Assembly: GCA_016203935.1 (NCBI GenBank)
Contig: JACQLU010000005.1
Location: forward strand, 1 to 44,831
Reading direction: 5' to 3'
Source: Parcubacteria group bacterium
Lineage (GTDB): Bacteria; Patescibacteriota; JACQLU01
Length of the DNA stretch: 44,831 bases
Positions 2,789 through 8,743 of this stretch are shown piece by piece. The notes beneath the pieces are model-generated. The model was not told the DNA's origin. It did not search any database and saw only the letters and a list, made by a program, of their open reading frames with translations. How positions within the stretch are numbered: the first letter of the stretch is position 1; each line of letters starts with the position of its first letter. The position numbers and the translations under genes are program-made.

Positions 2789-3832
2789 CTACTCATGGCG
2801 ACTCATGACCGTTACCGTGTCATCGCCACTATTAGCCACATAAATCTTGGATCCGTTGGGAAGCGCCGCCACTGCAAAAGGATTGAGTCCTGCAGTGACC
2901 ATCCCCTCCACGCGCGTGCCGATCGTTTGCACGACACTCACCTGTCCGGGTACGCCGGGCTCCGAACGATGTGCGACATAGAGAAAACCATCGCCCCCCA
3001 CCTGACTTAACGCATAGGGATAGATGCCCAATTGGATTCCCCCCTCCACGGAGAGTGTCACAAGGTTTATCACCCAGAGCCCCTCATTGAGACCATCAAC
3101 CACATAGGCATACCGTCCGTTTGTGGAGAGACTGATATCGGTGAGCCTCGTGAGTCTAGAAAGAATCAATTCCTCCACTACCCTCCTCTCTCTGATGTCC
3201 ACGACACTGAGGCGCCTCCCCACCGATTGCACCACGTAGAGGAATCTTCCGTCCGGGGAGAGCGCGAGAGAGTGTGGATGCGAACCGATCAGGATTCTGC
3301 TTTCCAGCTCTGCCTTAACAAGGTTAATCACATCGACCCAACCAGAGGCACTGCAGGCGATAAACGCGAGCGTACTATCGGTGGAGATGGCAATTCGCAA
3401 TGGGATGGCCCCAATACGTATACCCCTCCGCAGCTGTCCTGATGCAGCGTCGAAGATGAGCGCGTGACCAGACCCATTAGGACGTGAGCCGACCACGATG
3501 AGCGTCGTCCCGTCCGGCGCCACTGCGAGACTCGTAGCTCTCCGTATAGGCCACGTGTAGTAGGTGGCGATCACTCCATCGAGCTCGGTATCCACCACAC
3601 TGATAGTGTGGCTCCGCGCGTTGAGGACGAAGAGCCGATCCCCACTCGGTGTCACCGCAAGGAAGTTTGGTTCATCTCCCACTGCGATGGTGTTCACGAC
3701 CTCAGGCGGCGGGTGTTCGATCCGGAAAAGTTCTTCTGCCGTAAAGTTGAGAGACGAAACCGTCTCTAGAGAGCTTGTGTTCGCTACTCCAATCCACGAA
3801 AAAACTAACACTGCGGCCACTATCCGCTTCAT
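2789..3832 (-). CDS. secreted YVTN-repeat beta-propeller protein
   Basis: Signal peptide (MKRIVAAVLVFSWIGVANT). Repeated units of the type LFVLNARSHTISVVD, LYVVQSVGRRLSVVD, AYVVDGLNEGLWVIN and IYVANSGDDTVTVM. GGAGG lies 8 nt upstream of the ATG. Confidence 0.75.
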   Translation of the reverse strand: MKRIVAAVLVFSWIGVANTSSLETVSSLNFTAEELFRIEHPPPEVVNTIAVGDEPNFLAVTPSGDRLFVLNARSHTISVVDTELDGVIATYYTWPIRRATSLAVAPDGTTLIVVGSRPNGSGHALIFDAASGQLRRGIRIGAIPLRIAISTDSTLAFIACSASGWVDVINLVKAELESRILIGSHPHSLALSPDGRFLYVVQSVGRRLSVVDIRERRVVEELILSRLTRLTDISLSTNGRYAYVVDGLNEGLWVINLVTLSVEGGIQLGIYPYALSQVGGDGFLYVAHRSEPGVPGQVSVVQTIGTRVEGMVTAGLNPFAVAALPNGSKIYVANSGDDTVTVMSRHE

Positions 3833-3855
3833 TATCCGTACCTCCTTTTTTGTTT

Positions 3856-3884
3856 ACCGTACTCTGCATTGAGTAATTTGTCAA
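3856..3884 (-). promoter_or_regulatory. candidate sigma-70-type promoter for the YVTN gene
   Basis: Minus strand: TTGACA (3884-3879), 17-nt spacer, TACGGT (3861-3856), then AAAAAAGGAGG and the ATG at 3832. It shares the ATTTTGACAAA context with the promoter candidate at 5058-5083. Confidence 0.45.
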
Positions 3885-3904
3885 AATTTTGCGGAACTAG
3901 GGCG

Positions 3905-3929
3905 CTTTGAGGAGAGGAATGCCTCAAAG
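3905..3929 (-). terminator. 8-bp perfect hairpin closing the 3957-5024 cassette (no U-tract)
   Basis: CTTTGAGG-agaggaatg-CCTCAAAG. It lies between the end of the small ORF (3957) and the next -35 box (3879-3884). With no T-run on the minus strand, terminator function is uncertain. Confidence 0.35.
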
Positions 3930-3956
3930 AAAAAGAGCTCGCGATCTCATCTTTGA

Positions 3957-4124
3957 TCACGAGCCCTCTTGGTAGTCTGCCAGTGTCTCCCACACACCGA
4001 GCAGACCATTCGGAAATGTATTGTTCCGCAATATGCCTGTTTCGCGCTGGCATCTCCGACAGTAGTGCGGTGGAAATTGGACGGCATTAACTTTTCTACG
4101 AAGTCGCCGCTTTTGCGCTCGCAA
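3957..4124 (-). CDS. small basic protein, 55 aa, TTG start (hypothetical)
   Basis: AAGGAGGG follows the TGA of the upstream ORF directly (4128-4135), with TTG at 4124 (4-5 nt spacing). Translation: (M)RAQKRRLRRKVNAVQFPPHYCRRCQRETGILRNNTFPNGLLGVWETLADYQEGS. Same frame as track ORF 3957..4160. Confidence 0.35.
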   Translation of the reverse strand: MRAQKRRLRRKVNAVQFPPHYCRRCQRETGILRNNTFPNGLLGVWETLADYQEGS

Positions 4125-4135
4125 TAGCCCTCCTT

Positions 4136-4558
4136 TCAGAGATCGAATCCCCATGTGCAAGGAAGACAGAGTAGGCCGTATTCACGATGGTCATCGGGAA
4201 GATCCCTAATGACCATCTCTCCTTCGGCATCAGTAAAACCTTCGTGCGGGGACAACACTTCGCCAATTCCCCCCTGTGCATCAACGAGGAAAGGTGTCAT
4301 CCGGTGCCCCTCGATAAATCTCGAAAGCATTCTTCCGCACCCCATCTCTTCGAGCGCCCGCTTGAGCTCCATCGCGGGCCTAATAGTTACCCACGCGTCG
4401 TGACGGTTGTTCTGGTTTACCTCGGGACGAACCCCGAGGCGAAGGTGCCTGCCCGCAATAAATACCACCCTTCCTAATTGGAAATGCAGCCGGGGAGATG
4501 CCTCTACGAGCTCATCTCGAGATCCTCGCATTAAAGCAGAGAGTCTCTCTACACTCAT
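4136..4558 (-). CDS. hypothetical protein, paralog A of cassette
   Basis: The track ORF runs to 4579, but GGAGGAG sits 6-8 nt before the second ATG (MSVERLS..., 4558). It shares the motif AQGGI...(I/L)R(D/S)LPD(D/G)DHRE...LLC with ORF 4659..5024. I recognise no known family. Confidence 0.6.
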   Translation of the reverse strand: MSVERLSALMRGSRDELVEASPRLHFQLGRVVFIAGRHLRLGVRPEVNQNNRHDAWVTIRPAMELKRALEEMGCGRMLSRFIEGHRMTPFLVDAQGGIGEVLSPHEGFTDAEGEMVIRDLPDDHREYGLLCLPCTWGFDL

Positions 4559-4658
4559 GGTCTTCTCCTCCTTCCCCATCCTTTATCACTCTTTCATAGT
4601 AGTAAGTCAACTAATAGAGAACCGCCGAGCCTATGCCCGGCGGGAAATTGCCATCGAT

Positions 4659-5024
4659 TCACCTCCTAGCAAGCGGTTTGAGCGGGACTAGTTTATACGT
4701 ATGATCACATAGCAGTTTTGTATTGAAACCCCGCCCATCCTTGTTGGCGGTAATGAGTTCACGATGGTCGCCATCGGGAAGACTCCTGAGTTCCAGTTGG
4801 ATACCGCCAACGGAAAACATGTTGATGCCCCCCTGAGCTTCGAGCCGTACCTCGACAGTAAAGTTACGATCGGGGCTACGCCGACAGCGGCTCGCAGTGA
4901 TATGTATTCTCACGGGATCACTTGAGAGCCTTGTGTTCGTCGAGGGACCAACCTCTAGAGACGTAAGTACCTCATTGAGTGCCTCAAGAATGGTTGCTCT
5001 TCCCTCGCTGACTGCGTTGCTCAT
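4659..5024 (-). CDS. hypothetical protein, paralog B of cassette
   Basis: 121 aa. GAGGAGGGG sits 2-3 nt upstream of the ATG at 5024. It shares the EAQGGI / LRSLPDGDHRE / KLLCDH segments with ORF 4136..4558. Confidence 0.6.
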   Translation of the reverse strand: MSNAVSEGRATILEALNEVLTSLEVGPSTNTRLSSDPVRIHITASRCRRSPDRNFTVEVRLEAQGGINMFSVGGIQLELRSLPDGDHRELITANKDGRGFNTKLLCDHTYKLVPLKPLARR

Positions 5025-5057
5025 AACCCCTCCTCTTTCCTAATTTGACAGCACATT

Positions 5058-5083
5058 ATTATACTAAGCGAATTGTTTGTCAA
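5058..5083 (-). promoter_or_regulatory. candidate sigma-70-type promoter for the 5024-3957 cassette
   Basis: Minus strand: perfect TTGACA (5083-5078) and perfect TATAAT (5063-5058). Spacing is only 14 nt. The alternative AATAAT has 17-nt spacing. It is followed by the GGAGG and the ATG at 5024. Confidence 0.5.
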
Positions 5084-5086
5084 AAT

Positions 5087-5112
5087 GAAAGCCCCATCGA
5101 GATGGGGTCTTT
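5087..5112 (-). terminator. hairpin terminator (usable in both directions)
   Basis: GAAAG-CCCCAT-CGAG-ATGGGG-TCTTT. On the minus strand it is followed by CTTTCATTTT. It lies about 220 nt downstream of the stop of the 611-aa gene and just upstream of the cassette promoter. Confidence 0.5.
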
Positions 5113-5331
5113 AATATCTATAGGAGCAACATTACAAAAGTCCCAGATAATCCAACCCTAAATATGCCACCTCGACATCCGTAAGTCGCCCCTCTCGTAG
5201 CCACTTCCGAAATTCGGAGAGAGGCTTTAACACAACTTTAGCAAATTCGTTCTCAAACTGCGCTGGCTCACCCACTTTTCTACAATCAATTCTCCGTGTC
5301 CTCGAAGCTAGCAGCCGTCATGGAACGAGAT

Positions 5332-7167
5332 TTACTCAATACTATAGAGATCACTCACTATTGGGAATTCGCCGGCGATGGATGAACCGGCTGACAGAGT
5401 TGGATGCGCCACTACATCATCAGCCGTCTCGATGCCTAGGATAAAGTAATCACCGATCGGCGCATTCGGCGCAATGGTGCCGACAATGTTAAGTTGTCGG
5501 CTCGTGCCTGCCGGAATCGTCCAACCAAGGTTCAAAAAAGTGACCCGTGGGCTAGTAGCATCAAACGTACCTACACTGCCCACAATACTCCCCTGATCCT
5601 CGAGCCACACGCTGCTGAAATCTGGATCGCTAGAGGTGCCGTCGTGAGTTACCGTAATGGCGTCGAGCACGTAATCGGCTGCCGGATCGCCGTCAAAACG
5701 AACCGACATAACGACGAACGATCCAATAGCGCTGGATACCGTCCGAAACAATATCTCCGATGGTTCCAGCGGTACGAATGAGAGAGTAAGTTGACTTGAG
5801 GGAAAGGAGGGGTCGTAAGGAAGCACCGTATGCGTGGTTCCAAAAGCCGGAAAATTTCCCATGACGGCCGTGGGTAGATCGGCCGCTGCGGTAAAGACGA
5901 TATCGCTGGGCGAGGAAATCCCAAATGCGACCGTGCCCACTTGAGGAATATCGAGGCTAAATTTCGCTCTTATAGTAAGTGTGTTGGTGTTTCCCGCCGG
6001 CACTACCCAATTGAGGTTCGGAAATGAGGTACGTTTCGTTCCGCCGGCGGGCGACGAGGCCAAGAGCGTGTGAACCTCAAAGAGTCCTATCTCGACATAG
6101 AAATACTCAACCGTTCCCGTGTATTCCACGGTCAGCGACTGCACGGTGATATCTGTTTCGGGCGGCGCTGAAAAATCAACTTTGGTGACATCTCCAAAGG
6201 TGGTGGAGTTGAGAAAGGCAATGGCTCCCGGCGATAACGGAGACGTACTCACACTCAAGGTAGCTCTATTGGCGGGGATAACCACATTCTCATTGAGCGC
6301 GCCTCTCGTGTATGCGCCAACATCTGCGGCTACGATGGCGGGGTGATCGCCGGCTACCTTTTGGAGCGTGACCACATCGGGAATATACCGCTTGGTCGCC
6401 CCATCGATAAGGAAGAGGTCTCGACTCGCACTGGAAGTATCTTGAATAAGGGTACCAAACGGGTATCCCATGGTGTAGCCTTCGACAAAACCGGCGACGA
6501 CGTCATCTGGCAACGTAATAATGGCTCGTCCGTCGCGATTCGCCGCTAACACGTCAAGATCCGGGTATCGCCGTTTAATCGTGCCCCACAGCTCGTATAC
6601 GGTATCACTCGAAGCCCCTCTGACAACGAGACCGCTTGGATAAAAAATATTAGAGATTGGTTCTGCTTCCTGATAGAAGGTTGCGACATCGGTCTCGATA
6701 AATCCCTTTACCGACCCGCCAAACTTCTCATACAGCTCGATCGTGGGGACCCAGCGGAGATAGTATCGCCCGTCGATTTTATCGGTCATGTAGATTTTTG
6801 GATCATGGGGGCGCTTCACAAACGTACCGACCGGATACCCTACTTCTATACCTGGTGGAGAGAGCAGCGATAATTCTTCCGAAGTTGCCGGAAGAATGGG
6901 GCGACCACGTTGTATCGCGAGCAGAATAGAAGGGTTAGGAACTCTATGGAGACGACCTCCGCTCACTTCCCACACATCGGTCTTCCCCGCCTCTTGTACC
7001 AACACGCCGTTGGGAAAGATAAAACCCGCGGCGTGCGCGTCCGATGGGAATTTCATGAAAGACAGAACGAGTAGAAACGAGGAACAAACAGTTACGAAGT
7101 GTCGCTCAAACTTCCACTGAGACACCATACGTTTGTGAAAATTGCTATCACCCTCAATATAGACCAT
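5332..7167 (-). CDS. secreted repeat-containing surface protein (hypothetical)
   Basis: 611 aa. Signal-like segment VTVCSSFLLVLSFMKFPSDAHA. Four tandem 65-85-aa repeats, three ending in GYP and one in FYP, then two beta-sandwich-like modules. The true start may be the internal MVSQWK (7128). Confidence 0.65.
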   Translation of the reverse strand: MVYIEGDSNFHKRMVSQWKFERHFVTVCSSFLLVLSFMKFPSDAHAAGFIFPNGVLVQEAGKTDVWEVSGGRLHRVPNPSILLAIQRGRPILPATSEELSLLSPPGIEVGYPVGTFVKRPHDPKIYMTDKIDGRYYLRWVPTIELYEKFGGSVKGFIETDVATFYQEAEPISNIFYPSGLVVRGASSDTVYELWGTIKRRYPDLDVLAANRDGRAIITLPDDVVAGFVEGYTMGYPFGTLIQDTSSASRDLFLIDGATKRYIPDVVTLQKVAGDHPAIVAADVGAYTRGALNENVVIPANRATLSVSTSPLSPGAIAFLNSTTFGDVTKVDFSAPPETDITVQSLTVEYTGTVEYFYVEIGLFEVHTLLASSPAGGTKRTSFPNLNWVVPAGNTNTLTIRAKFSLDIPQVGTVAFGISSPSDIVFTAAADLPTAVMGNFPAFGTTHTVLPYDPSFPSSQLTLSFVPLEPSEILFRTVSSAIGSFVVMSVRFDGDPAADYVLDAITVTHDGTSSDPDFSSVWLEDQGSIVGSVGTFDATSPRVTFLNLGWTIPAGTSRQLNIVGTIAPNAPIGDYFILGIETADDVVAHPTLSAGSSIAGEFPIVSDLYSIE

Positions 7168-7180
7168 TGTGAAGAACTAG

Positions 7181-7207
7181 AAAACCCCGCGGTGGGTACG
7201 GGGTTTT
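7181..7207 (-). terminator. rho-independent terminator after the sigma/anti-sigma operon
   Basis: AAAACCCCG-9 nt loop-CGGGGTTTT. It starts 25 nt after the stop at 7232. A U-run is part of, and follows, the 3' arm on the minus strand. Confidence 0.65.
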
Positions 7208-7231
7208 CTCTTTAGAACTGATGATGAATAC

Positions 7232-8743
7232 TTACTCCGCAATCTTCTCAAGCGGAAGCGGGACGGGGAGAATCTTTATGGGACCGCCACCATTCCCCTC
7301 ATCCAAGACTTCTTTCACGAGCGGAACCACTACATCTTTCGTGTAGAAGGCTTCGCCTTCGGGTGCTTTGGTGACCGGGAAGATGAGCGCGGGTACAAGC
7401 AGTTCGTTTCCGAGATTCGCCTCGTAGGTCCACACCCGGACGAGCGCTTCCTTGGGCGTACCCAGCTCTACCTCGACAATTTTTGCACTCGGATCCTCAT
7501 ACGGATACATCCTAAATCCGCCGCGGGAGGCAATCTCTAAGATTCGGTCAACGTCAGTCTCGGCGCCATAGAGTGAGCTCTGGTAATTTTGGGTGGTAAG
7601 ACCCCAGAGCCCCGAGACGCGCTGACTTCGGACATTGATATTGACCGAGATACCGCTTGGGAATCCTCCCTCGTCATACACCTCTTGGCCGTCGATCTTG
7701 AGCGGATAGATGACCGTAGCGAAATCGGGAATATAGAAGCTCGCCTTGTCACTTGCCCTAAGATACTCCTCGCGCCACGTGTTATTCACCACTGGCTCGC
7801 CATAGAATTCGGTAGGAATGCCGTGATCGGCGAGGAAACGATTCGCAAGATTAATCAGTACCTCGTCCGCCGGTATATCGCCCTCTTTCACGCGATAGCG
7901 CTCAAAACAGGCTTCGTCTTGGCACTCCGCTTCAGGATGCGGCCAGCGCTGCCAATTTTCATTGATCGAAATCGCACCTTCATTGAGATCAACAAAGATC
8001 GAGTAGCCAAAGTCCCGTTCCTCATTGATCTGGAATGATTGGACCGAAGGATTTGAGAATGAACCGAAATTGAGAAGACCGAGGCCGCTGCGATTAAGAA
8101 AACCAGTGAGCTGTGATCCAAGGGTATTACCCTTAATGCGCTTTAAGACCTTCGCCTCGGTTGAAGGAAGCGACAAGGGCTCACCTTTATACGCATAGCG
8201 GTAGATGGTGGGTATATAGATCTCACTATCGACGACGGAAGGAGAAGCAAGACTCTCACCGGTTTCGAGACCACCGCCGCCTTTACCAGCCGGCGCTGAA
8301 GCACCGCCCCCGCCGCTTTCTGGCCGCGGATTTACCGAAAGCGCAAGGGGTCCAAAGGCACGCTCACCGACCGAGCGTATATCGGCGCGTGACCGAGCCG
8401 AGAAAGTATCTTGATTTTGAGTAACGAGGTACGCTGACCCCACTACCAGTAACGTGAGGACCGCAAGTCCACCCACGATCTGGGGAAGTTGCTTCATAGA
8501 TATAAGATTAAAGGATAGGAAAGGGATGGAGCGCGCACGGGAGGATGCCGCTTGCGATACCTGCCCCTCCATGAGTTTCTGCCTAAGACGCGCCATAAAC
8601 GCGGGATCAACCTTCGCATCCGGCCGCGATGCGAGAAGATATTGAGTCACGCGCGTAAGCGCCGCTTCGTGCTCACGCAGGGTAGGATCGACCGCATAGA
8701 GGTCCTCCAACATAGATTGTAATCGTGGGTGATCCATACTCAT
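7232..8743 (-). CDS. putative anti-sigma factor (single-pass membrane protein with large extracytoplasmic domain)
   Basis: The start overlaps the sigma-factor stop (ATGA, 8740-8743). About 85 aa of cytoplasmic N-terminus, one TM (LPQIVGGLAVLTLLVVGSAYLV), a Gly-rich linker and about 330 aa outside. The call rests on position and topology, not on a recognised domain. Confidence 0.55.
   Translation of the reverse strand: MSMDHPRLQSMLEDLYAVDPTLREHEAALTRVTQYLLASRPDAKVDPAFMARLRQKLMEGQVSQAASSRARSIPFLSFNLISMKQLPQIVGGLAVLTLLVVGSAYLVTQNQDTFSARSRADIRSVGERAFGPLALSVNPRPESGGGGASAPAGKGGGGLETGESLASPSVVDSEIYIPTIYRYAYKGEPLSLPSTEAKVLKRIKGNTLGSQLTGFLNRSGLGLLNFGSFSNPSVQSFQINEERDFGYSIFVDLNEGAISINENWQRWPHPEAECQDEACFERYRVKEGDIPADEVLINLANRFLADHGIPTEFYGEPVVNNTWREEYLRASDKASFYIPDFATVIYPLKIDGQEVYDEGGFPSGISVNINVRSQRVSGLWGLTTQNYQSSLYGAETDVDRILEIASRGGFRMYPYEDPSAKIVEVELGTPKEALVRVWTYEANLGNELLVPALIFPVTKAPEGEAFYTKDVVVPLVKEVLDEGNGGGPIKILPVPLPLEKIAE

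Follow-up and report, generated by a model that had tools for sequence, protein, structure and literature searches.

Two candidate orphan genes with their own predicted promoter and structured terminator in a Parcubacteria genome

In translation-coupled attenuators of the Escherichia coli pyrBI/pyrL type, a leader ORF runs into the terminator, and the boxes of integron attC sites follow the consensus RYYYAAC and GTTRRRY. Small proteins of unknown function are numerous in the Patescibacteria, for which AGNOSTOS counts 54,343 clusters that are lineage-specific and of unknown function, 45,788 of them species-restricted (PMC9132574). We compared with these systems a unit on the minus strand of a Parcubacteria group bacterium contig (JACQLU010000005.1 of assembly GCA_016203935.1), located in a 44,831-nt stretch of DNA that was analysed as a whole and is called the window below. 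Its features are collected in Table 1. The ORFs, Shine-Dalgarno (SD) sites, 8-bp hairpin and protein motifs reported in a preliminary description were all recovered where it had placed them, including an ORF B of 121 aa with a strong GGAGG and an ORF A of about 140 aa with a strong GGAGGAG. Taken as a whole, we hold with moderate confidence that the locus consists of two lineage-restricted orphan genes which are not full-length paralogues, with their own promoter and a structured terminator, and that the third ORF is most likely a non-gene. The outcome is mainly a correction of annotation: two orphan genes, not three, and a motif in common, not whole-gene paralogy.

The contig stretch from 5352 to 3554 was 100% identical in an independent Logan assembly of run SRR12113383, and the unit with both of its junctions is therefore not an assembly artefact. 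Because the source genome is the sole representative of its class in the genome collection examined, no synteny is available for the unit. The neighbouring 611-aa gene gave only distant domain matches in 400 genomes of the phylum and none in metagenome contigs; the best homologue of the neighbouring beta-propeller protein shares 58% identity and lies in different gene surroundings. ORFs A and B form a local patch of unknowns with their neighbours of 611 and 503 aa. Since Pfam domains were found in 10 of the 10 other ORFs of 119–270 aa in the window, A and B are not the sign of a uniformly unknown proteome.

Table 1. Features of the unit, in window coordinates
Feature	Position	Strand	Details
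ATTTTGACAAA, upstream copy of 11-nt direct repeat	5076..5086	−	holds the −35 hexamer of the promoter of B
Predicted sigma-70-type promoter of B	5055..5083	−	TTGACA 5083-5078, 17-nt spacer, AATAAT 5060-5055; 11/12 match
Alternative −10 hexamer TATAAT	5063-5058	−	only 14-nt spacer to TTGACA
ORF B, 121 aa	4659..5024	−	SD GGAGG 5033-5029, 4 nt ahead of ATG
Palindromic DNA block in B, TTCCCGATG-GCGAC-CATCGTGAA	4758..4780	−	encodes LPDGDHRE; inside the codon-identical block
Mini-ORF MAISRRA, 7 codons	ATG 4654 to TAG 4631	−	SD formed by the last codons of B, AGGAGGTGA; overlaps the B–A hairpin
Terminator-like hairpin between B and A	4622..4643	−	9 bp (8 G-C), 4-nt loop, then U-rich UUCUCUAUUA
ORF A, 140 aa	4136..4558	−	SD GGAGGAG 4571-4565, 6 nt ahead of ATG
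Palindromic DNA block in A, TTCCCGATG-AC-CATCGTGAA	4181..4200	−	encodes LPDDHRE
55-codon TTG ORF	3957..4124	−	SD AAGGAGGG 4135-4128, directly past the TGA of A
Structured RNA domain	3889..4031	−	9-bp closing stem, 4031-4023 with 3897-3889, around H1, H2 and H3
H1 hairpin, 14 bp	4008-3973	−	inside the structured RNA domain
H2 hairpin, 16 bp, predicted intrinsic terminator	3970-3931	−	G+C-rich 12-bp core, 8-nt loop; U-tract UUUUUCUUU 3934-3926
H3 hairpin, 8 bp, of the preliminary description	3929-3905	−	directly 3′ of H2
ATTTTGACAAA, downstream copy	3877..3887	−	holds a −35-like hexamer before the beta-propeller gene

Coding potential of the open reading frames

ORF A and ORF B are probably genuine genes. 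Each was the best of the six reading frames, with G+C by codon position matching the genome pattern, and B is annotated as a gene in both the NCBI and the Logan records. Only 3% of shadow ORFs exceeded the dicodon score of B (0.295); for A, 22–34% of shadow ORFs scored higher, so that it is barely separated from them. One gene caller chose an internal ATG of A at 4531, which gives a product of 131 aa. Across the genome, 141 of the 397 sites with GGAGG 4–6 nt before an ATG open a frame of at least 100 codons.

In codon, dicodon and amino-acid composition, the two ORFs scored between the 4th and the 29th percentile of true coding windows, with the codon and dicodon scores of A at about the 10th percentile and its mix of arginine and lysine (16 Arg, 1 Lys) matched in 0.09% of coding windows. 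Such low scores for this genome would fit a non-coding or decaying stretch whose parts of importance are the promoter and the RNA structures alone, with A and B as open frames that arose by chance or are degenerating; the lack of relatives amid small window ORFs that all carry Pfam domains points the same way, as does the abundance of shadow ORFs longer than 100 codons (n = 772 in the genome). We regard this as improbable, because two non-overlapping ORFs lie on the same strand, each with an ATG 4–6 nt past a perfect GGAGG, and the chance of each such start is well below 1e-3 by our own estimate from site frequencies. In addition, a strong promoter with normal leader geometry precedes them, the differences in an AQGGI block common to both are synonymous only, and a gene-free 1.2 kb would be an unusually long gap.

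For the 55-aa basic ORF listed after A, the frame, the position of its SD after the stop codon of A and the basicity of the product (pI 10.8) were as described, but its status as a gene did not survive scoring. Its codon (−0.08) and dicodon (−0.13) scores lie below those of 99–100% of true coding windows, and genome-wide, GGAGG–TTG sites open at least 100 codons in 35 of 299 cases. Two thirds of the frame falls inside an RNA structure (z = −7.4), with the stop codon in the 5′ arm of H2, and the exact 55-aa sequence had no match in a collection of 15 billion proteins. We conclude that it is probably not a protein gene, being instead an open frame over a stable RNA structure.

Sequence common to ORF A and ORF B

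The AQGGI, R-x-LPD-DHRE and LLC motifs do occur in the same order in both proteins, as first noticed. Aligned by BLASTP, A and B matched over 36 residues (E = 0.003), and their Smith-Waterman score of 46, against 27 ± 4.5 for shuffled sequences, was reached in 4 of 2000 and 6 of 3000 shuffles. Judged from these alignments, the similarity is real but marginal and local. Once the R-x-LPD-(G)-DHRE block was masked, 560 of 3000 shuffles reached the remaining score, leaving no similarity, and the N-terminal halves show no relationship, their score being reached in 1970 of 3000 shuffles. What A and B have in common is therefore best described as a roughly 36-residue module, AQGGI ... R-x-LPD-(G)-DHRE, to which LLC-x1-2-[C/H] may also belong.

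The two blocks of this module differ at the DNA level. The AQGGI block shows 3 synonymous and 0 non-synonymous differences between A and B, a divergence that looks as expected of an old conserved protein motif. In the R-x-LPD-(G)-DHRE block, 8 of 8 codons are identical, the rare AGG included (P about 2e-4), and the DNA contains a palindrome, TTCCCGATG-N2/5-CATCGTGAA, that occurs at only two sites in the genome, one in B and one in A. Among 400 other genomes of the phylum it was present in 5, compared with 3 for the reversed control, which is chance level. Being both codon-identical and palindromic, the second block has either undergone recent homogenisation through a short conversion tract or is under nucleic-acid constraint as well.

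The preliminary description had read A and B as an old tandem duplication. If they were full-length paralogues of such an origin, forming with the 55-aa protein a three-gene operon, one would expect the colinear motifs, the SD-like sites before each of the three ORFs, and the similar order of elements in the low-confidence structure models, where an N-terminal helix is followed by beta strands. We consider this reading rather unlikely, since pairwise similarity is confined to one 36-residue stretch and is abolished by masking a single block of 9–10 residues, and since 8 of 8 identical codons point to copying at the DNA level more than to old common descent and would hardly persist through an old neutral divergence. 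The third ORF, moreover, has no coding signal and lies within RNA structure, and 100 nt with a terminator-like hairpin separate B from A. As to the models themselves, AlphaFold2 on single sequences gave a pLDDT of 48 for A and 36 for B; the low-confidence model of A has an additional two-helix insert relative to B.

Transcription signals and RNA structure

The claim that the unit has its own transcription signals holds on sequence, with a near-consensus promoter and terminator-like hairpins. The promoter had been described as a perfect TTGACA/TATAAT pair; both hexamers are present, but their 14-nt spacing is unsuitable, and the workable combination is TTGACA-17-AATAAT. Genome-wide there are 52 promoter sites with at least 11 of 12 matches, about 13 being expected by chance, and the promoter of B is among the 52. 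The SD and start of B follow at +19 after the −10 hexamer, a spacing also seen at several other sites with at least 11 of 12 matches, and B would be transcribed from this near-consensus sigma-70 promoter with a short leader.

Three tightly linked ORFs on one transcript were not borne out, as the gap between B and A measures 100 nt and has a terminator-like hairpin inside it. Both this hairpin and H2 have the make-up expected of intrinsic terminators, a G+C-rich stem with a U-tract directly behind it in the transcribed strand. The hairpin after B, with its U-rich run, probably halts part of transcription, and A may be reached by read-through or from a weak TTGACT-17-GATAAA site within the gap, its own strong SD serving translation. 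Transcripts would then end at the 16-bp hairpin and U-tract (3970-3926). The 8-bp hairpin that had been thought to close the unit exists, but the likely terminator is the 16-bp H2 just 5′ of it, which had been overlooked; a strong terminator missed at first reading is now placed at the end of the unit.

Focusing on the RNA domain that contains H2, we found that a segment of about 150 nt (143–153) folds at −67.2 kcal/mol compared with −40.9 ± 3.6 (z = −7.39), and that the plus strand of the same region reaches only z = −3.95. Folding at least this extreme occurred in 18 of 16,516 genome windows, which places the domain among the most structured 0.1%. Its closing stem of 9 bp may have arisen by chance (by our own estimate a probability of about 0.04 for a sequence of such a length) and is unable to form if transcription stops at H2. 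Rfam 15 produced no match, either at gathering score across the window or, for 3600–5400, at any E up to 1. A covariance model built from the single RNA sequence detected no second copy in the genome itself or in 400 genomes of the phylum.

The short ORFs that begin where B and A end, MAISRRA and the 55-codon frame, might be leaders whose translation melts the terminators and permits read-through into A and the propeller gene. The layout is indeed twice alike, with an SD at or beside the stop codon, a start 4–7 nt further on, and an ORF stop inside a hairpin, once in the loop of the B–A hairpin (4633-4631) and once in the 5′ arm of H2 (3959-3957); the propeller gene's own promoter is also weak, with a −10 of TACGGT (3861-3856), and fell below the threshold of the promoter scan. 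We nevertheless judge this very unlikely. There are about 1.3 GGAGG sites per kb on each strand, around a quarter of them with a start codon 4–9 nt further on, which makes two cases of an SD and start at a stop codon not unlikely (partly our own estimate), and no alternative anti-terminator structure was identified.

Relatives, possible functions and comparison with known systems

Neither protein could be placed in a known family, as the preliminary description had also concluded: A and B had no match in Pfam, NCBIfam, PADLOC or PHROGs, with none in curated families at E up to 1 and none in Pfam at E up to 10. Searches of the PDB gave best E-values of only 0.16 and 1, a word-indexed search of 5.8 billion clusters returned the window's own proteins only, and no relatives were found in metagenome, genome and viral contigs, phages or plasmids. 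For A, 1.84 billion representatives scanned in full with HMMER yielded no genuine relative, nor did its own genome and 60 genomes of the phylum. Two leads for A were rejected upon inspection. One, a 4034-aa eukaryote-like coiled-coil repeat protein (P0003), had 8 chance matches on 'KDLPDD'. The other, an ATP-grasp lead (L019) through 'NPFLVDAQGGIG' at the C-terminus of an ADP-forming acyl-CoA synthetase, scored 33 bits; A has no ATP-grasp_5 hit, and the match is an artefact, as it was picked by the search pattern itself.

Residues 86–111 of B could be seen as a degenerate HNH (His-Me finger) motif, D-H-x13-N-x4-C-x-H-x2-K, whose D-H, N and L-C spacing fits the consensus of 20 aligned HNH domains (DHIxPxxxGGxTxxxNxxxLCxxCN); an HMM from these domains aligned residues 101–108 of B to NlqlLCkk. 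This is extremely improbable, since B had no Pfam hit at E up to 10, a genome-wide HNH search was silent at the locus, the hhalign probability was 0.2%, and the HMM score of 0.5 bits was equalled in 40 of 1000 shuffles. Furthermore, B, with Cys47 and Cys106 as its only cysteines, lacks CxxC pairs, and A, which has one CxxC (131–134), lacks the Asn segment.

On present features A and B would be small soluble cytoplasmic proteins, A with a pI of 5.9 and no signal peptide, B with a pI of 9.2 and neither signal peptide nor membrane segment. Very tentatively, conserved Asp/His/Glu and Cys/His positions suggest a common metal-binding site, the aligned residues in A and B being Cys74/47, His124/87, Cys131/106 and Cys134/His108, and the basic B and acidic A might act as a pair; the basis for these two ideas is the four aligned residues and the pI values.

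A basic and an acidic small protein also invite comparison with toxin-antitoxin-like or conflict pairs, and the unit could be a small accessory module that was inserted between a terminator and the promoter of the propeller gene and duplicated an 11-nt target, ATTTTGACAAA. Two of only 5 genomic copies of this 11-mer bracket the unit, 1199 bp apart, and the unit combines a promoter and terminator of its own with atypical composition and orphan status. Against this, its G+C content of 51.6% equals the genome value, no transposase or recombinase lies nearby (two tyrosine recombinases are on other contigs, C71 and C75), and each 11-mer includes a −35 hexamer beside AT-rich sequence, so that the two may simply be promoters. 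Nor does the pair qualify as a type II toxin-antitoxin or known defence system, as neither A nor B has a PADLOC or Pfam domain and the genes lie 100 nt apart around a hairpin, unlike the overlap of most type II pairs. We therefore think it improbable that the unit is an inserted accessory module of this kind.

It is likewise very improbable that the palindromes, the four-way RNA and the 11-nt repeats are one functional set marking a new small self-contained module. Were this the case, A and B would be the founders of a new metal-binding family and would recognise their own palindromes for autoregulation or site-specific rearrangement, recombination between the palindromes would give an in-frame B–A fusion, and the RNA domain would count as a novel non-coding RNA.

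The locus is a curiosity, not a new system. Two oddities deserve note, namely the codon-identical palindromic block and the unusually stable RNA domain, and if A and B are expressed they would constitute a new small protein module for a deep lineage represented by a single genome. Orphans like them are very common in small-genome bacteria, with no link to any process here.

Compared with the systems introduced above, the unit resembles an integron cassette in having a structured element of about 140 nt after a cassette-like ORF, with inverted repeats of the form ...AAC / GTT...; its arms GCGGAAC and GTTCCGC are off the attC consensus, no second (L) box pairing is seen beside the closing stem, and there is neither a cassette array nor an integrase nearby, the tyrosine recombinases being confined to C71 and C75, and we rejected this assignment. 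HNH nucleases (PF01844) have the D-H-x13-N-x4-C spacing in common with B, which differs from them in failing all profile tests run and in lacking the zinc-binding CxxC pairs. Like pyrBI/pyrL attenuators, the unit has, twice, an SD-led short ORF ending in a terminator hairpin, but it is without the pause-site/U-run logic and an identified anti-terminator, and 55 codons are long for a leader. In H2 and the B–A hairpin, the G+C-rich stem and U tail match intrinsic, tandem or compound terminators, whereas H2 is embedded in a four-way arrangement of 143 nt, which is more structure than a terminator requires. Finally, although A and B come from the sole genome of a class, and the other small window ORFs all have Pfam domains (10 of 10), the two resemble the species-restricted unknowns of AGNOSTOS in having no detectable relatives, in being small and in carrying normal expression signals (PMC9132574).

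Gene content and promoter of the unit

ORFs B and A and the 55-codon frame lie, with their SD sites, where the preliminary description had placed them. A 1799-bp Logan contig (run SRR12113383) reads across both junctions and is 100% identical to window 5352..3554, which excludes binning or assembly errors as the source of the arrangement. The G+C content of the stretch is 51.6%, against 51.5% for the genome. The promoter ahead of B, originally given as a "perfect" TTGACA/TATAAT pair, does look strong, but that pair is only 14 nt apart; TTGACA-17-AATAAT matches at 11 of 12 positions. Genome-wide, 52 sites reach at least 11/12 (chance alone would give about 13), and at many of these an SD and start codon follow approximately 19-21 nt past the -10, as in B. 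The match, its rarity and the usual SD spacing together argue for a strong, typical promoter.

Features of the unit and its neighbours, in order of increasing window coordinate (downstream to upstream)
Feature	Position	Strand	Remarks
Lytic transglycosylase gene		minus	First in order, downstream of propeller gene
YncE/YVTN-type beta-propeller gene	3832..2789	minus	Next downstream of unit
Identical 11-mers ATTTTGACAAA	3877-3887 and 5076-5086		Bracket unit, 1199 bp apart
H3	3929-3905	minus	8 bp; RNA folding; hairpin cited in the preliminary description
H2	3970-3931	minus	16 bp, G+C-rich core then UUUUUCUUU; intrinsic terminator signature
H1		minus	14 bp; RNA folding
55-codon TTG ORF	4124..3957	minus	SD present
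ORF A	4558..4136	minus	140 aa; SD present
ORF B	5024..4659	minus	121 aa; SD present
Palindrome copies	4181-4200 (in A) and 4758-4780 (in B)		In frame in both
47-codon ORF	5135-5275, frame open from 5317	minus	Between unit and 611-aa gene
611-aa, then 503-aa protein genes		minus	Upstream of 47-codon ORF; both without Pfam domains
ECF sigma factor, then PrsW protease genes		minus	Upstream of 503-aa gene

Each of A and B tops its six frames in coding score, and both follow the genome's G+C pattern by codon position (A 0.66/0.43/0.54, B 0.59/0.46/0.52, genome 0.59/0.43/0.58). The genome contains 397 instances of GGAGG with an ATG 3-9 nt downstream; 141 of them open at least 100 codons. Only 3% of shadow ORFs exceed B's dicodon score, and 22-34% score higher than A. 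The codon, dicodon and amino-acid scores of both proteins fall at the 4th-29th percentile of real coding windows, low for this genome; the residue mix of A (16 Arg, 1 Lys) is found in 0.09% of such windows. On balance, both are very probably translated genes, possibly young or acquired ones. The third ORF of the three-gene reading is most likely not a gene: both codon and dicodon scores are negative, the start is TTG (GGAGG-TTG sites lead into at least 100 codons in 35 of 299 cases genome-wide), and the exact sequence is absent from a 15-billion-protein collection.

Similarity between A and B

The two proteins had been proposed as products of an old tandem duplication. BLASTP aligns 36 residues (E = 0.003), and the Smith-Waterman score of 46 (shuffles 27 +/- 4.5) is reached by 6 of 3000 shuffles; once the R-x-LPD-(G)-DHRE motif is masked, the score drops to 28, equalled by 560 of 3000, and significance is lost. 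The N-terminal parts show no similarity (1970/3000 shuffles reach the score). At the DNA level, the AQGGI block carries three synonymous and no non-synonymous differences, which has the look of an old, protein-constrained motif, whereas the R-x-LPD-DHRE block uses identical codons at 8 of 8 positions, including the rare AGG (P about 1.8e-4). As DNA, this second block forms an imperfect palindrome, TTCCCGATG-(AC or GCGAC)-CATCGTGAA, and TTCCCGATG-N2/5-CATCGTGAA occurs at these two sites only in the genome and at chance level only in 400 other phylum genomes. An old duplication of whole genes leaves this pattern unexplained, and A and B appear paralogous over a short module only. That module plus a recent short conversion tract would account for the codon-identical block, and a nucleic-acid constraint would do so equally well. 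Recombination between the palindrome sites would yield an in-frame B-A fusion.

Hairpins in the B-A gap and at the 3' end

In place of the supposedly tight linkage, B and A are 100 nt apart, and a 9-bp hairpin (8 G-C pairs) with a U-rich run after it occupies the gap; B may therefore be largely monocistronic. Within 4631-4667 (minus strand), the final codons of B, AGG AGG TGA, make up a perfect SD, and a 7-codon ORF (MAISRRA) starts 7 nt further on; its TAG stop falls in the loop that caps the terminator-like hairpin 4643-4622. At the 3' end of B, a weak plus-strand promoter-like site, TTGAGC-16-TATGAT (4678-4705; 9/12, a chance-level match) faces a hairpin at 5091-5108 that is also readable as a plus-strand terminator; the two might delimit a transcript antisense to B.

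Downstream of A, the minus-strand RNA 4036..3884 has a folding energy of -67.2 kcal/mol, whereas shuffled sequences give -40.9 +/- 3.6 (z = -7.39), with the minimum-energy structure making up 10% of the ensemble; the plus strand, owing to several G-U pairs, gets no further than z = -3.95. After G+C correction, 18 of 16,516 genome windows are equally stable. A 9-bp closing stem encloses three hairpins (H1, H2 and H3). The 8-bp hairpin taken to close the unit is present as H3, but the adjoining H2, which would be a textbook intrinsic terminator, had been overlooked. The third ORF's stop codon falls within the 5' arm of H2, repeating the layout of the MAISRRA ORF and its hairpin. This recurrence would fit translation-coupled read-through past both hairpins, yet two such cases are within reach of chance, and we consider that mechanism improbable. 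We read the 3' region as the unit's terminator region with added structure, or possibly a new non-coding RNA; it has no match in Rfam and no second copy in its own genome or 400 phylum genomes.

Of the genome's five copies of ATTTTGACAAA, two make up the bracketing pair, and both of these contain a -35 hexamer. The pair may be a target duplication or just two promoters. The remaining three copies are not obvious promoters. The putative beta-propeller promoter (3856-3884), missed by the promoter scan, has a perfect -35 and a weak -10 (TACGGT), and that gene may rely partly on read-through from the unit.

Relatives and genomic setting

That neither protein fits a known family was borne out in Pfam, NCBIfam, PADLOC, PHROGs and PDB sequences. 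Nor was anything found for A or B in their own genome, phages, plasmids, 5.8 billion clusters, or genome, viral and metagenome contigs, or for A in 60 phylum genomes. A full HMMER pass with A over 1.84 billion representatives returned only A itself and a 4034-aa coiled-coil repeat protein (P0003), rejected as a repeat-inflated chance match (8 matches on 'KDLPDD'). PFLVDAQGGIG is common to A and one metagenome locus, L019, likewise rejected: it was picked by the search pattern itself, scores 33 bits and is the terminal part of an ATP-grasp_5 enzyme, whereas A gives no ATP-grasp match. An HNH nuclease reading of B, with HNH-like spacing, failed every profile test. Neither protein has a signal peptide or membrane segment; the pI is 9.2 for B (basic) and 5.9 for A (acidic). 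A metal site in both is tentatively suggested by the D-H-R-E motif and by four Cys/His positions that align; the AlphaFold2 models are too low in confidence for use.

The neighbouring 47-codon ORF scores well (codon 0.13, dicodon 0.385; 1% of shadow ORFs higher) and is followed by a hairpin terminator (5107-5092); it lacks a clear SD, has no Pfam or PDB relatives, and its exact sequence is missing from the protein collection. With A, B and the 611-aa and 503-aa proteins, it makes up an approximately 5-kb Pfam-free patch (3900-8743) adjoining the ECF sigma/PrsW genes; by contrast, all 10 of the other ORFs of 119-270 aa that were sampled across the window carry Pfam domains. A 1735-aa ORF on another contig (C2) contains a segment paralogous to the 611-aa protein, with 49% identity. 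The nearest propeller homologue (58% identity) adjoins a divergent amidohydrolase gene on a contig of 2.5 kb assigned to a Deinococcus sp. bin (GCA_016199255.1, JACQHA010000415.1), with no synteny to the window. The source genome (approximately 1.0 Mb, 97 contigs, 87% complete; the window is one entire contig) is the sole member of its class in a 199,900-species collection, and comparison genomes (0.4-2.1 Mb) share phylum-level kinship only.

Overall, the three-gene, old-duplication reading holds only in part: B, A, their SDs and a short shared module stand, while coding scores, shuffles and the gap speak against the third gene, the whole-gene duplication and the tight linkage. The locus is real but ordinary: two orphan genes with one short, oddly conserved motif in common, then a strongly structured terminator region. 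In this phylum, unknowns restricted to one species predominate: of the 54,343 unknown clusters that are lineage-specific, 45,788 are confined to the species level (PMC9132574).
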